Positions 7,626-53,285 of a stretch of DNA of 64,000 bases are shown one piece after another. Position 1 is the stretch's first letter, and each line of letters starts with the position of its first letter. Where the stretch lies: IMG/VR virus record IMGVR_UViG_3300024317_000004, positions 8,418-72,417 of that record. One strand, 5' to 3'. Source of the stretch: a virus. The notes under the pieces were generated by a model. The model was given only the letters and a program-made list of their open reading frames with translations, ran no database searches and had not been told where the DNA came from. Position numbers and translations under genes: made by a program.

Positions 7626-8770
7626 AGTACAAGCATCAAACTTGGCGTAAATTGTACATCAAGGAAGAGGGTGCTTTTGCGAAGCTCCCGTTCACCGCAC
7701 GTGCCTACGCGAAACAGCTCATGCTTCTCTGTGATGGTGCGGGTCGGATTCATGTGGGCAATGGAGACGACTGCGTCAAGCTACTCGTAGAGACGGCTGG
7801 ATTCCGTATCGGTGCCACGCGTGGAGACCGTCGGATGATGAGCACGATGTTCCCTATGCTCTTCGAAGAGGGCTACCTGGTTCATCGAAGTCCTTACGTT
7901 GTCATTCGAAACTTTGTAGCAGCTCAGCGCAAGTGGTCCGACGACGAAGAACAACCCCCCGGCTCTGACGATTCGTCCACGATCGTTCCACCATCCAGCA
8001 ATGAAGCTGCAGCGAACCCACCACGAACCGGTAATGAAGCTGCAACGACCGAGCAACGACCGAGCAATGACGGTGCAACGAACGGGGAACGAACGGGGAA
8101 CGAACCGACCACTGAACAAGAGCTAAGTACGCTAAATCATTCAGATGACGTTGCTAGCGCGCACACGCGCGCGCTCAGTTCTGATCTGAGTAGTTCTGAT
8201 CTGAGTAGTTTTGAGATGAAGGGGGTGCAGGGGGAACAACAGCAGCCGATCGATAAGCCAGAGACCGATCCGGCAATCACTCCGGCATCTGGCGATGCCT
8301 CCGCGCCGCACAAAAAAACAAAGCGCCGAAAGCCCAAAGCCCCTGCCCCGGAAGTCCCGATCCCTGAACCGGGCACGGTTGCCAGGTCAGTCTACGACGC
8401 GATCGTTAACGACCCGATCCTGGGACCGATCACGGCAGGCCCTGCTGACTTCGCCGTACGCATCACTCACCCGGACGCATACCCAGGCGTCAACGTGCTG
8501 GCGGAAGTCCTACGCGCCGCAGAGCACTACGCTCGCGGCAAGCGGGTCTACACCGATGGCCGCAGAACGCTTGCCAACTGGCTTCGCGGCGAGGCCGAAA
8601 AAGAAGCCAGTCGGCCCAAGCCAACTCCGAACCAACTAGCGCTTGGAGCCAAGAAAACCAAAGGCCCGCTTGATCCAGCACCCGCGAGCAAGTTCACGCG
8701 ACCCGGCGAATCGTACGACCCGTTCAGTTTGTACAACGCCGATGGCAGCCCGAAGGGAGCGACGCAGTGA
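7622..8770 (+). CDS. phage replication initiator protein
   Basis: upstream of a DnaC-like ATPase; low-complexity middle containing DNA repeats. Confidence 0.65.
   Translation: MKYKHQTWRKLYIKEEGAFAKLPFTARAYAKQLMLLCDGAGRIHVGNGDDCVKLLVETAGFRIGATRGDRRMMSTMFPMLFEEGYLVHRSPYVVIRNFVAAQRKWSDDEEQPPGSDDSSTIVPPSSNEAAANPPRTGNEAATTEQRPSNDGATNGERTGNEPTTEQELSTLNHSDDVASAHTRALSSDLSSSDLSSFEMKGVQGEQQQPIDKPETDPAITPASGDASAPHKKTKRRKPKAPAPEVPIPEPGTVARSVYDAIVNDPILGPITAGPADFAVRITHPDAYPGVNVLAEVLRAAEHYARGKRVYTDGRRTLANWLRGEAEKEASRPKPTPNQLALGAKKTKGPLDPAPASKFTRPGESYDPFSLYNADGSPKGATQ
7998..8208 (+). repeat. iteron-like repeats, probable replication origin
   Basis: AATGAAGCTGCA repeats, tandem AACGAACGGGG, tandem TCTGATCTGAGTAGT inside the initiator gene. 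Confidence 0.6.
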
Positions 8771-12311: not shown

Positions 12312-12393
12312 GAAGTGGTGCCCGAGCGGTTCAAGGGGTCGCGCTGTAAACGCGATGGCTACGCCGACGTGAGTTCGAATCTCACCCACTTCA
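12312..12393 (+). tRNA. tRNA-Tyr(GTA)
   Basis: acceptor GAAGTGG/CCACTTC+A, anticodon arm TCGCG-CTGTAAA-CGCGA, long variable arm, T arm GTGAG-TTCGAAT-CTCAC; CCA not encoded. Confidence 0.9.
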
Positions 12394-12669
12394 CTGCTAG
12401 TCTTTGCCGAACATGTTCGTCGTATCGCCCGACCACTACGAGCGCCTGTCCGCGTCGTTCGAGCGGGTCTTCGGTCGTCCACTGCCTGTTGTGTCCAGCG
12501 TGCCACCGCCGTCGCACTCGTTCTCCACGGAGGAGATCACGAGGATGCTGGCGGATCCTGATCTGTTCGCTGGGATTGAGTGTGACAGTGGTGCTGTCTG
12601 GGACGAACTCCCCGCTTGCCAGCAGGCCCCTCGCCTAGCATGAAAAGTTGTAGGTTCACAAGGTGACGT

Positions 12670-50379: not shown

Positions 50380-51177
50380 ATGGAAAAGTGGAGTGAACCG
50401 AAAGGGCCACCACCGCGATGGCTCGACCTTGCCGACGAAGTCACGGCCGACGAGCCGAAGCCGCCTCGTGACCAGTTCGTCGTGGCGTGCATGGAGGCGT
50501 GCTTGCGACTCGATTGCAACCCGATGCAAGCGGCAGGCGTCACGGCCAACGTGATGAACGAGAGTGCGTGGGGGCAGTCGTATCGCGGCAATAACTTGGG
50601 TGGCTGGAAGATCTACGAGCACTACGCGATCGCGTATCGCAAGGCTCATGGCAAAGGACCACGCTGGTGGCGCGGTCCCGGCAACAAAGCGCCTGGGGCC
50701 ACACCGAAAGACCTCAAAGGGGGCGATCCGCCGTGGTGCTTCTACAGAGCGTTCGAGTCCATCGAGGACTTTCTCGCGAGCTGGCTCAAGACGTTCGTTC
50801 CAGAGCCGCCCCTTGGTACGCCCTCTCGCGAGAGCAAAGGCGATCCCGCAACGGGTGATTACCGACTTGCGGGTGAACGATTTTGGGGCCGTCGGGCCAA
50901 TTGGTTCGATGCCATGGTTGCGGCCGGGTACAAGGGCTCGCGCACCGAAGCGAGTCCCGAGCAAGCGATTGCCGAACATCACAGTTTGGTGCAGTCCGCC
51001 TTAACTCGCTGGGGGCAATCACGTTTAGGCGTGACGGCTGACGGAGCCTGGGGGCCCAAAAGCAAAACGGCCTGCGCCGCGTTTCAGGCTTGGCACGGAC
51101 TGTCGGTCACGAACATTCTAGACGACGAGACGCTGGTTGCTTTGGTGCACAGCAAACAACAGCCCCAACCAGAGTGA
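50380..51177 (+). CDS. endolysin (glucosaminidase/lysozyme-like plus peptidoglycan-binding domain)
   Basis: NESAWG...NNLGG...YRAFES...AAGY; C-terminal ADGAWGPKS...FQAWHGL. Confidence 0.8.
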   Translation: MEKWSEPKGPPPRWLDLADEVTADEPKPPRDQFVVACMEACLRLDCNPMQAAGVTANVMNESAWGQSYRGNNLGGWKIYEHYAIAYRKAHGKGPRWWRGPGNKAPGATPKDLKGGDPPWCFYRAFESIEDFLASWLKTFVPEPPLGTPSRESKGDPATGDYRLAGERFWGRRANWFDAMVAAGYKGSRTEASPEQAIAEHHSLVQSALTRWGQSRLGVTADGAWGPKSKTACAAFQAWHGLSVTNILDDETLVALVHSKQQPQPE

Positions 51178-51179
51178 CC

Positions 51180-51957
51180 TGGTTGGGGCCATTCCCTGTC
51201 CCTTCCGCTCCTTTGCAGTCCTGCCCCATCCGCTCCATTGCCATCGGTTGCAATGAGGCCCGTTCCTCTCGTAGCCCCTCCCGTCCTATCCATTCCACTC
51301 GGTTGCTGTCGCTTGCTCTCCCCTCCGTCCCCCTGCTTTGCCCGAGCCTTCGCCCGGCTCCGATGCAGCACGCTGCACCCGAGTCGAGCCACCGGCGAAC
51401 CGGCGAACTCGGGGCCTTTGCGATCCTTTCCCCTGCTGTCCTGACCTGTCCGCATCCCATCGGCTCCCCTCCCCTCCCCAACGCTCCCCATTAGCGCTCG
51501 GGACGAGGCCCGGATTGCTCCGGGCGCCGTTGGGCTCCACTCCTGTCCGGTTCACTCCGTTGCCGCCCTTGCCTCTGCTTTCCGCTCCCCTCTGCCCCAA
51601 TGCAGTCCGTCGTTTCCAACGCACTCGCTTGAATGCGCTCGAAACGGCGCTCGCGCGAACGCGATGCCGGCCATTCCGTTCCTCCCCGGCCCAATCATGT
51701 CATTCCCAGGCCGCTCCCATGCTCTGCAGTCGGCCCCCCTCCATCGCGTTCCGCTTCACCCCAGTACACATCCACTCCTCTCCCCTCTCCAAAGCACCTG
51801 AATGCTCTCGAGACGGGACCCGATCTCTCGGGACACGTCGCCTTTCCTCTGCGGTCCGTTCACTTGCTCTCCGGTGCCGTCCCATCACTTCCTTTGCAGC
51901 CAACTCTCGTCCTGCCCACTCCCCGCTTTTCCTCTCCGCTCCACCCCTCTGCCGTCC
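51180..51957 (-). ncRNA. array of about five pentamer-repeat (GGA/GCA/GGG + NN) units separated by tetraloop hairpins; candidate guide RNAs
   Basis: 5-nt periodicity on the minus strand, e.g. GGACG GCAGA GGGGT GGAGC GGAGA GGAAA...; four hairpin separators with a shared 3' motif. Confidence 0.8.
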
Positions 51958-51972
51958 GAAGTCTAAAAAGAA

Positions 51973-52569
51973 TTATGCGGCTTTCTTTGCTAGGTCGCCG
52001 TCCCAGCAAACGACCGCGAAAATCCCGAACGGACCACCACGCTGAACTCTGTAGTCGCCGAGACCGTTTCCGATGCCGGCCTCTTCGAGCAAGAGCCTGA
52101 TAGTTGCTTCATCCAAGATCTCCGTACGCAACCGAAGATTGAACTTAGCGCTCCATTCGTCGAGCCGCGCACGATGTCTCATGACGCGGCCTTTTGTTGC
52201 GGGAATTACGACCGCTCGGCTGTCAACCTCGAAGTCCTTTGCGCGAGTTTTTCGGTCCTTGAGATACAAGGGCACCATGTCTTCGCAAACCACGCACGCA
52301 GCGGGCACGAGATACTTTAAGGACTTGCGAGATCCTCGCTGTTTGTGTCCAGCGCCCATTTCGGCGATTGCGCGGCTAATCCCAGTACCTGCGATGCATA
52401 GTCCGCCCTTAGAGTCGCGATGCGTGCCTTTCTCGGCAATGTCTCGCGGCAACTCTGTGGTGATCTGCACGCGACGTGTTGATTTTCCACTGTCCGCCTG
52501 CGCCTGATCGCCAAACTTGTGAATCAGCAACGGCGAAACGCCCTCGATCCAGACCTCAATCGTTTTCAC
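51973..52569 (-). CDS. solo RAMP/Cas7-like protein (VIPR-type effector candidate)
   Basis: N-terminal IEGVSPLLIH, RHRARLDEWSAKF strand, C-terminal G-loop AGIGNGLGDYRVQRGGPFGIF; RBS GGAGG. Confidence 0.8.
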   Translation of the reverse strand: MKTIEVWIEGVSPLLIHKFGDQAQADSGKSTRRVQITTELPRDIAEKGTHRDSKGGLCIAGTGISRAIAEMGAGHKQRGSRKSLKYLVPAACVVCEDMVPLYLKDRKTRAKDFEVDSRAVVIPATKGRVMRHRARLDEWSAKFNLRLRTEILDEATIRLLLEEAGIGNGLGDYRVQRGGPFGIFAVVCWDGDLAKKAA

Positions 52570-52582
52570 TTTGCCTCCATTA

Positions 52583-52652
52583 AGCCCTTTCGGGCCCCTT
52601 CCATTCCCCCGCTCTCCATCCCCACCACTTGCTCTCCTTCGTGTTCCAGTCC
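52583..52652 (-). ncRNA. leader pentamer-repeat unit upstream of the RAMP gene
   Basis: GGACT GGAAC ACGAA GGAGA GCAAG TGGTG GGGAT GGAGA GCGGG GGAAT GGAAG, then hairpin GCCC-GAAA-GGGC. Confidence 0.7.
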
Positions 52653-52661
52653 AACGCGCAC

Positions 52662-52690
52662 ACTATACGTACTTTGTACGTACAAGCAAG
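52662..52690 (-). promoter_or_regulatory. promoter of the RAMP/array transcript
   Basis: TTGCTT-N16-TATAGT on the minus strand, containing two GTACGTA boxes. Confidence 0.6.
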
Positions 52691-52855
52691 TTACTTCTTT
52701 ACTTCTCGTAGCAATCGTCTTGCTTCGAACAACGCAATGCGTCTGACGAACGACGACACATCTTCACCTGATAATTCTGCGGCTTTCGCGAGATCTCGCT
52801 TTTCCGCTTCCGTGAGACGCAACTCGAGACGCGCCGACCGACCGGACTCAACCAT
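52691..52855 (-). CDS. ribbon-helix-helix regulator (DUF1778/MobC-like), 54 aa, absent from the ORF track
   Basis: MVESGRSARLELRLTEAEKRDLAKAAELSGEDVSSFVRRIAL; upstream TGGCCA-N17-TATGAT. Confidence 0.75.
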   Translation of the reverse strand: MVESGRSARLELRLTEAEKRDLAKAAELSGEDVSSFVRRIALFEARRLLREVKK

Positions 52856-53047
52856 AGGCCAATCATACGGCTACCATACGTACATGGCCACGGCGATATC
52901 ACGGAAGGTTACAGAAGCACGTAAAACGACGGCGCGGCTCAAGGAGCTTGGCTACAAGCTAGGGCAGTGGGTAGACGCCCCGCCAGCCGACGTGCCATAG
53001 TTCGACCGTTCGGCACGACGTTGTCCGTGACGTGTTGAGCTCCTGAG

Positions 53048-53285
53048 ACGGCCTGGTCACCCGCCAGGCCGTTTTGCTTTTGCGCTAGACATCCCGCCGT
53101 CACGCTGGCACAGTCCCCATCAGAAGCGTTTCTCGCAAGAGGAACTACCGCACGATTCGCCCTGGCCCTCACCGGCTAGGGCGTTTTGCTATTTCTGGCA
53201 CGCCGTGCGACGGTCCATCGTACACTTTCACACGTAGATGGGACTGATACGAGGCCTTGGCATGGTGCTGAGGCCTTTTGTTTTT
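53048..53285 (+). terminator. three tandem intrinsic terminator-like hairpins
   Basis: ACGGCCTGG..CCAGGCCGT+TTTG; CGCCCTGGCC..GGCTAGGGCG+TTTT; AGGCCTTGGCA..TGCTGAGGCCT+TTTGTTTTT. Confidence 0.55.

Follow-up and report, generated by a model that had tools for sequence, protein, structure and literature searches.

The locus described here lies in a 64,000-nt stretch of viral DNA (positions 8,418 to 72,417 of the IMG/VR record IMGVR_UViG_3300024317_000004), called the window below, and all coordinates refer to this stretch. From 52900 down to 51000, the minus strand carries a promoter-like site, an open reading frame (ORF) of 54 aa, a gap, an array of 5-nt repeats (pentamers), a 198-aa gene named here vipr, five further arrays, and a terminator (Table 1). 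The whole sits antisense between an endolysin gene of the phage and the next conserved segment. It most probably constitutes a cassette of the Viral Interference Programmable Repeat (VIPR) kind, about 1.9 kb long (51178-53045), whose guides are built on a purine scaffold and one of which, U5a, is aimed at the endolysin gene of a rival phage.

The VIPR systems are known from two preprints of 2026. According to these, VIPR is a phage-borne system composed of a single RAMP protein (Vipr), an accessory vap gene, and vrRNAs, each with 9-16 YNNGG repeats and a structured 3′ tail. The NN bases set the DNA target in the form NN-x-NN-x (1-nt skip). Target sites often lie within coding sequences, the skipped base then falling on the wobble position, and the targets are competing phages or satellites. 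Seven types are distinguished, and NNNGG, YNNNG, and NNNNG are given as alternative repeats (10.64898/2026.04.26.720920). A member of the Vipr family was solved bound to repeat RNA. One protomer covers one repeat, the base G1 is read by H17/D177, G2 is held by R138/W178, and the third-base pocket of the Vipr of Escherichia phage SUSP1 excludes purines (10.64898/2026.04.26.720927).

The 198-aa gene pointed out in the first-pass annotation of this DNA, with IEGVSPLLIH near the N-terminus and a Gly loop, GLGDYRVQRGGPFG, near the C-terminus, is present as described. It starts with GTG, and GGAGG is found 8 nt upstream of the start. A search of PDB sequences with the single protein sequence returned the ‘SUSP1 Vipr protein’ (36pp_D) at E 7e-4. 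When a profile built from 47 homologs was used instead, this chain was matched over the full length at E 5.6e-9 (residues 1-186 against 1-187), and no other chain was found under E 1. The AlphaFold (AF2) model of the window protein reached a pLDDT of 86.3 and a pTM of 0.81. Foldseek gave 84 PDB matches for this model at E<=1e-3, and Csm3/Cas7 chains of types III and VII were at the top (E 4e-6, TM ~0.5-0.55). No Vipr appeared among these matches because the fold library is older than the Vipr entries of the PDB. In the PHROGs database, only phrog_4652, of unknown function, was matched (E 2e-17), and Pfam and PADLOC gave no match for the protein, Cas or other. Judged by the sequence profile and the predicted structure, the window protein is a Vipr homolog with a RAMP fold. 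The RAMP/Cas7 fold proposed at first pass was borne out by the model, and the VIPR reading given there agrees with both preprints (10.64898/2026.04.26.720920, 10.64898/2026.04.26.720927) and with the profile match to 36pp_D.

The arrays were analyzed by autocorrelation, by a scan of 100-nt segments over the whole 64 kb, and by a hidden Markov model (HMM). In the region 51180-51972, base identity was 0.40-0.43 at lags of 5, 10, 15, and 20 nt versus 0.24-0.33 at other lags, which confirms the 5-nt periodicity claimed earlier; within the vipr coding region, lag identity was flat (0.22-0.28). Half of the 40 strongest period-5 segments (20/40) fall within 51151-51876 or 52551-52601. All seven period-5 values of at least 4.0 belong to the VIPR locus; the best value elsewhere was 3.35, the mean over the window 0.75, and the standard deviation 0.52. 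The first HMM parse, with a purine prior at position 3, yielded 117 pentamers, and a repeat parse with a uniform prior there yielded 100. Six array units with two slips had been proposed, and the parsed coordinates are close to those, U1 being composed of 23 pentamers plus GG. Among the 117 pentamers, position 1 is G in 84%, position 2 is G in 74% and C in 23%, and position 3 is A in 77% and G in 18%. The first three positions carry approximately 1 bit each. Positions 4 and 5 are nearly uniform, with 0.09 and 0.01 bits, and every one of the 16 dinucleotides is represented. A purine occupies position 3 in 111 of the 117 pentamers in the purine-prior parse and in 89% of the 100 pentamers in the prior-free parse. 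Counted as triplets, 66 of the 117 are GGR, 21 are GCA, and 5 are GGY, so the canonical GGY triplet is absent as a rule, and the fixed triplet of the window arrays is G-(G/C)-(A/G) instead. The preprint admits ‘a related consensus’ and NNNGG-type repeats, and the departure from GGY therefore marks a variant and not an exclusion from VIPR.

Homologs of the window Vipr were collected, and 360 of 663 candidates were found at E<=1e-3. The best 80 (L001-L080) of 161 loci confirmed in viral contigs of IMG/VR were then considered. Strong period-5 segments lie directly upstream or downstream of the gene in 78 of these 80 loci, in a check that had been proposed at first pass; of the two exceptions, one is cut off at the end of the gene and one has no such segments. 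The share of segments over the threshold at these loci is 15.7% downstream of the gene versus 1.4% at a distance. All homolog arrays are rich in G when read on the gene strand, with C or T as the third base. In the prior-free parse, the frequency of purine at position 3 in the 76 homolog loci with at least 8 parsed pentamers has a median of 4.5% and a maximum of 21%. Compared with the 89% of the window, these values bear out the GGR/GCA scaffold variant that had been suggested earlier. Since the nearest parsed homolog locus, of the GGY type, is 55% identical to the window Vipr, the purine switch lies inside an otherwise GGY clade. Upstream ORF calls at L007, L022, L026, L044, L070, and L076 proved to be vrRNA arrays misread as repetitive pseudo-proteins rich in Gly, Ala, and Arg; pseudo-proteins of this sort in databases may mark unannotated VIPR arrays. 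Genome contigs searched for close Vipr relatives gave one weak locus (32% identity over 69 residues), and the metagenome contigs searched gave none. A degenerate DNA pattern of the G-loop peptide of this lineage matched 19 metagenome stretches, 0/19 of which encode a Vipr relative. Among cultured phages, only five Vipr-like records were found, with 23-29% identity, all annotated as hypothetical.

These results bear on the view that there is no guide system at all and that the G-rich period-5 tracts are DNA-level elements or an unrecognised coding region. Long spurious ORFs do cross the arrays on both strands, but a period of 5 is incompatible with coding, similar arrays on the gene strand accompany the homologs in the 78 loci, a family member was solved bound to such RNA according to the structural preprint, and one array, U5a, decodes to a gene of a rival phage. 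We regard this view as already contradicted and hardly credible.

A different possibility is that the locus is a VIPR system in which position 3 is simply unread, as in a relaxed NNNGG-type repeat, and that the excess of A and G there reflects composition or mutation bias. The arrays are indeed purine-rich overall (G 43%, A 24%), and the methods of the preprint name vrRNAs with NNNGG, YNNNG, and NNNNG repeats (10.64898/2026.04.26.720920). Against this, purines make up 55-64% at positions 4-5, where the information is close to zero, but 89-95% at position 3, which carries 1.0 bit; clade relatives hold position 3 strongly to pyrimidine, and the substitutions specific to this lineage cluster at the mapped pocket. 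An unread third position is thus improbable in our estimation.

The residues of the pocket were compared in an alignment of 47 sequences, namely the window protein, P0002, and 45 other homologs. P0002 is an 86% identical relative of the window Vipr, encoded on a contig of 4,656 nt. Only these two proteins deviate from near-invariant residues, at Y50H, P60A, A63G, R69A, A71M, G164A, P175V, and E176Q, and both also carry I168N and Q167G. In the 45 other homologs, P175 is present in 45/45, E176, P60, and R69 in 44/45 each, A63 in 39/45, and I168 in 32/45. The G-loop aromatic residue is followed by R-P in 118 of the 120 homologs listed, and R-V-Q occurs only in the window protein (P0001) and P0002. 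According to the profile alignment, E71/M72 of SUSP1 Vipr correspond to T62/G63 of the window protein, C173 corresponds to N168, and R179 to R174, which is kept; P175V and E176Q directly follow this conserved R174. The equivalents of the G1/G2 contacts are also kept, with H17, D172, R133, and the aromatic Y173 in place of H17, D177, R138, and W178 of SUSP1, and they are near-invariant in the clade of the window Vipr. As far as an alignment of sequences can tell, the parts that read G1 and G2 appear conserved and those that size the third-base pocket appear altered. These data are compatible with an orthogonal VIPR code, in which a remodelled Y3 pocket (A63G and I168N; P175V and E176Q) would have let this Vipr lineage exchange a pyrimidine for a purine as the buried scaffold base. 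We consider the chances of such a switch to be evenly balanced. If it is real, cross-loading between the window Vipr with its guides and the GGY systems in rival phages would have ceased, which would explain why the change is complete across all six arrays.

To decode the guides, a run of eight adjoining NN dinucleotides was taken from seven array segments in turn, and IMG/VR was searched for each run as an exact NN-x-NN-x pattern. The segments came from U1 (two), U2, U3, U5a, U5b, and the leader array; U4, which has a slip and is of low complexity, was left out. The seven seeds gave 84 exact matches. The U5a seed had a single match in the whole collection (L116, record G001). When this match was extended into the flanks, 10 of 12 bases agreed on the 5′ side, where the initial pentamer of the array is reached (all five pentamers but one), and 4 of 6 bases agreed on the 3′ side (three pentamers). 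Under the 1-nt skip rule, guide U5a thus matches G001:C1:7462-7512(-) at 30 of 34 NN bases, and beyond pentamer 17 only 5 of 26 bases match, which is the chance level. The site shares its reading frame with an ORF, and over 17 codons the skipped base is always at codon position 3. This ORF encodes 250 aa, is 40% identical (E 3e-53) to the putative endolysin of the window, and has the same C-terminal PG_binding_1 domain, slightly under the Pfam cut-off. Within G001, the combination of positions 4-5 with a skip of 1 scored 30 and the other 19 combinations of register and skip scored 19-23, in a comparison of rules that is biased by the choice of G001 with a skip-1 seed. The maximum for 200 shuffles of the NN order of U5a within G001 was 23. 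The evidence that is independent of the seed is the extension into the flanks, the codon phase, and the identity of record G001.

The remaining seeds gave less. Flanks of 82 of the 84 matches were at chance level (13/44 or lower in proportion); this holds for all matches of the two U1 segments, U2, U5b, and the leader, and no U5b match could be extended. A match of U3 in L110 agreed at 9 of 16 bases in the flanks and, taken as a whole, at 25 of 32 NN bases, which is not significant (~0.07 after correction, by a binomial estimate). The 25/32 site of U3 lies in an ORF of 416 aa at L149 7035-8285 (-), record G002, with the skipped base at the wobble position and no Pfam or PHROG match for the product; it is a possible second target, though a statistically marginal one. 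None of the other window guides matched G001 above the shuffle level. Within the phage's own 72,417-nt genome, the best self-match was 15-16/20, again the shuffle level. The earlier suggestion that competing phages are probably silenced gains one natural candidate target, that of U5a in G001; the other seeded segments have no convincing one (1/7).

G001 is a record of 21.5 kb, 33% complete, and syntenic with the window phage; seven collinear blastn segments of 67-78% identity and four more proteins in the same order were found. No Vipr or RHH (ribbon-helix-helix) homolog was detected in G001. Between the stop of its endolysin gene and the segment corresponding to window 53046-53166 there are 64 nt, versus 1,868 nt (51178-53045) between the same points in the window, and these comprise exactly the RHH gene, vipr, and all arrays. 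The cassette is therefore an indel between two related phages. The endolysin gene of the window differs from that of G001 in sequence and length at the targeted site.

Several points weigh against the reading of the locus as a functional purine-type VIPR cassette, and the bias of the register and skip comparison is one of them. The 3′ boundary of U5a was fixed after the match had been seen, and only one of the seven seeded guide segments has a convincing target. Arrays of 23-30 pentamers exceed the 9-16 repeats given for type II vrRNAs, with guide boundaries being uncertain. Homologs of the RHH gene were found beside vipr relatives in 0/80 loci with a significant tblastn match, so there is no conserved vap gene of this kind. 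The pocket argument is built on a profile alignment at very low identity and on one evolutionary event, represented by two sequences. The preprint's ‘T175’ is a V in the aligned PDB chain, which makes the residue mapping there uncertain, and for this reason the position was given no weight. Perturbation of GGY abolished silencing by the SUSP1 system, and a GGY>GGA construct is listed in the legend of fig. S12 (10.64898/2026.04.26.720920); a purine scaffold accordingly needs a Vipr of changed specificity. Finally, there are no RNA runs among the sequencing runs listed for this stretch.

Some of the same observations would be expected of a decaying or inactive VIPR locus, whose arrays have drifted from GGY and are no longer loaded, the match to G001 being a relic of the origin of the guide. 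The reported exclusion of position-3 purines by SUSP1 Vipr, the recognisable target for one guide only, and several degenerate pentamers are in line with this explanation. Drift would, however, randomise position 3 and not fix A there at 73-77%, and the NN positions are fully variable while positions 1-3 hold about 1 bit each. Moreover, the ORF is intact, the G1/G2 contact residues are conserved, and the promoter-like site, the ribosome-binding site (RBS), and the strong terminator are in place. The phage itself is also seen with hardly any change in three runs of soil metagenomes, from three studies, of which one is probably the source of the record. Decay is for these reasons very unlikely.

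For an intact VIPR cassette, the following course of action may be proposed by analogy with the SUSP1 system. Transcription of the minus strand would start upstream of the RHH gene and proceed to the terminator (51193-51158). The six arrays would give rise to vrRNAs, divided by the hairpin modules between them through processing or termination. By analogy with the SUSP1 structures, one Vipr protomer would then bind each pentamer, bury the G-(G/C)-R triplet, and present the NN dinucleotide. The presented dinucleotides would pair, gapped as NN-x-NN-x, with the rival's endolysin gene on its template strand, and the bound filament would repress transcription of this gene. Release of the rival's progeny would then be blocked, in mixed infection or from a resident prophage. 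The likely role of the cassette is to silence the lysis gene of such a relative while the phage's own divergent endolysin is spared.

Table 1. Features of the VIPR cassette and its neighbours, in window coordinates.
Feature	Position	Strand	Basis and remarks
HNH_3 homing-endonuclease-like gene, 327 aa	53555-54538	-	~0.7 kb upstream of the cassette and not within its defining indel
Promoter-like site TGGCCA-17-TATGAT, upstream of RHH gene	52862..52890	-	Consensus scan, 1 site vs 0.4 expected; putative function
GTACGTA motif within promoter-like site	52877-52883		Motif scan
RHH gene, 54-aa ribbon-helix-helix protein, TacA1-like/NikA-like	52691..52855	-	Pfam PF08681 (E 1.1e-7) and PF21983 (E 1.1e-6), both over cut-off
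33-nt gap, RHH stop to leader array	52658..52690	-	2-3 overlapping GTACGTA motifs at 52666-52683
Leader array, ~13 pentamers	52586..52657	-	HMM parse
Small GAAA-loop hairpin after leader array, then RBS	~52582-52597	-	Fold -9.9 kcal/mol, z -1.5
vipr gene, 198-aa RAMP protein, homolog of SUSP1 Vipr	51973..52569	-	Sequence profile, predicted fold
Array U1, 23 pentamers + GG, register unbroken, possibly two guides	51841..51957	-	HMM parse
Spacer 1, two consecutive hairpins (GAGA tetraloop, then 7-bp stem)	51784..51840	-	-25.2 kcal/mol, z -2.5, 1/200 shuffles as good
Array U2, 24 pentamers, one 1-nt slip (6-mer)	51662..51783	-	HMM parse
Spacer 2, two consecutive hairpins	51609..51661	-	Fold -31.3 kcal/mol, z -3.7
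Array U3, 16 pentamers	51527..51608	-	HMM parse
Spacer 3, two hairpins, first with GCAA tetraloop	51478..51526	-	Fold -26.2 kcal/mol, z -1.65
Array U4, 12 pentamers, one slip	51415..51477	-	HMM parse
Spacer 4, three hairpins	51342..51414	-	Fold -41.8 kcal/mol, z -2.4
Array U5 as a whole	51192-51341	-	HMM parse
Guide U5a, 17 pentamers	51257..51341	-	HMM parse and target match
Three degenerate pentamers, then U5b (10 pentamers, 51241-51192)	51192..51256	-	HMM parse
Intrinsic terminator ending the cassette, 16-bp stem + T-run	51158..51193	-	z -5.6, 0/200 shuffles as good
Putative endolysin of the phage, C-terminal PG_binding_1, convergent with cassette	50380..51177	+	Pfam; context, outside the system

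The spacers between the downstream arrays are 49-73 nt long, and each folds into two or three hairpins with z values from -1.65 to -3.7 in shuffle tests on the window sequence. The division of U5 into U5a and U5b we infer from the end of the target match; a hairpin at their junction was considered and discarded, the folded stretch having a z of +0.7. An Rfam search of 50900-53000 returned only a lncRNA at 25.4 bits, below the gathering score of 50, and no ribozyme, hammerhead or other, was found between the guides. The terminator faces the stop of the plus-strand endolysin gene. In addition to the promoter-like site of Table 1, the gap before the leader array holds a weak -35/-10 pair, TTGCTT-17-TATAGT, which matches at 8/12 bases and is under the threshold of the scan.

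The partly palindromic motif GTACGTA has 12 matches in the window versus 1.8 expected, and four of these lie within 52666-52883 (~220 nt). The four matches flank the RHH gene, one in the promoter-like site and the others directly before the leader array. They are candidate operators, and the RHH protein may regulate the cassette; it is a candidate regulator or a vap-like DNA-binding accessory. As a conserved vap partner throughout the clade, the RHH gene was ruled out by the 0/80 result in the homolog loci. In ten loci of GGY-type relatives (L031-L033, L041, L042, L046, L047, L051, L053, and L063), an ORF of 130-190 aa ends 2-24 nt before vipr. Its conserved N-terminal motif is suggestive of a helix-turn-helix, and the ORF is absent from the window; it is likely the vap of that subclade.

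The first-pass annotation had stated that no repeat-spacer array, no cas1, cas2, cas5, or cas6, and no effector nuclease lies nearby. Tandem Repeats Finder (TRF) gave no CRISPR-like array in the window, and the protein had no Cas match; the part on the nuclease calls for one correction, as the HNH_3 gene of Table 1 is located close to the cassette. PADLOC classes this gene as a homing endonuclease, and it lies beyond the segment common to G001, so it was set aside as a nuclease partner of VIPR. As G001 matches it only weakly, over 81 residues, it is probably a free-standing homing endonuclease. TRF also revealed tandem repeats of 11, 33, and 15 nt at 7997-8214 (scores of 62-97), where nothing else is annotated. 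These repeats resemble iterons and may represent an origin or a binding array.

The complete record of 72,417 nt belongs to a tailed soil phage (CheckV completeness 100, GC 60.6%). Its genes include those for terminase, portal, major head, sheath, baseplate, endolysin, and integrase, and each of the 28 larger ORFs in the window is either a phage gene or without assignment. One gene for tRNA-Tyr (GTA) is found at 12312-12394 (+). The contigs of the same phage in the three soil runs show two single-base differences; being nearly unchanged, they give no information on variation at NN versus fixed positions.

According to the preprints, the VIPR rule is a pyrimidine as the third base. A natural system with 89-95% purine at this position, inside a clade that is GGY in all other members examined, points to the residues that set specificity and allows a direct test by swapping pocket residues together with the base. 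Should the switch be real, mutually orthogonal protein-guide pairs would be at hand, and with them a second, non-interfering Vipr/vrRNA pair for programmable DNA binding. The cassette is also an ecological example. It is an indel between related soil phages, with a guide aimed at the lysis gene of the relative that has no cassette, at the place where the endolysin gene of the bearer differs.

The literature on VIPR that was searched, which covered neither the supplementary repeat logos nor two later preprints, gave no mention of a GGR scaffold; ‘purine’ was found together with vrRNA only in the structural preprint, as the statement of exclusion (10.64898/2026.04.26.720927). The closest described counterpart is the type II VIPR of Escherichia phage SUSP1 (Vipr, vap1, and four vrRNAs; PDB 36pp). 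Both are phage-borne and have a single, homologous RAMP protein of ~200 aa, with one array before the gene and several after it, all on the gene strand. In both, three bases of the pentamer are fixed and two are hypervariable, and a guide read by the skip rule leads into a gene of a competing element, where the skipped base falls on the wobble position of the coding sequence, without a self-target. The structured tail of the SUSP1 vrRNAs has a putative counterpart in the predicted hairpins after the window arrays. The proteins are, however, very distant (E 7e-4 by single sequence), and the window triplet, G-(G/C)-purine, is one that the SUSP1 pocket reportedly excludes. The window arrays have 12-30 pentamers versus 9-16, and their putative tails are predicted to fold as simple tandem hairpins. 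A small RHH gene lies upstream instead of vap1, of which no homolog was found in a comparison that did not extend to the published vap families. The target is the endolysin gene of a relative and not a satellite. The NNNGG repeats of the preprint formally accommodate the window's GG with a non-pyrimidine third base; in a comparison made by the repeat name, the window differs in that position 3 is constrained to purine.

In the case of class 1 CRISPR systems, the window Vipr has the RAMP/RRM fold with G-loop and thumb in common with Cas7/Csm3 of types III, VII, and IV. Proteins of the Cas7/Csm3 group polymerise along the guide at a fixed period. This period is 6 for them, whereas that of the window is 5 with a gapped guide, and the window has no CRISPR array by TRF, no other cas genes, and no Cas match in Pfam or PADLOC. 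The GGY-type Viprs of L001-L080 (40-55% identical; phrog_4652) belong to the same protein clade as the window Vipr (E 1e-44 to 8e-69) and likewise have a vipr gene with flanking arrays. Their arrays are GGC/GGT-NN, with the median of 4.5% purine at position 3 against the 89% of the window, and they keep P175/E176, A63, P60, and R69, which are replaced by V/Q, G, A, and A in the window lineage. The VIPR kind is already in print in the 2026 preprints, and the window is the one locus with a purine-type scaffold among those parsed here.

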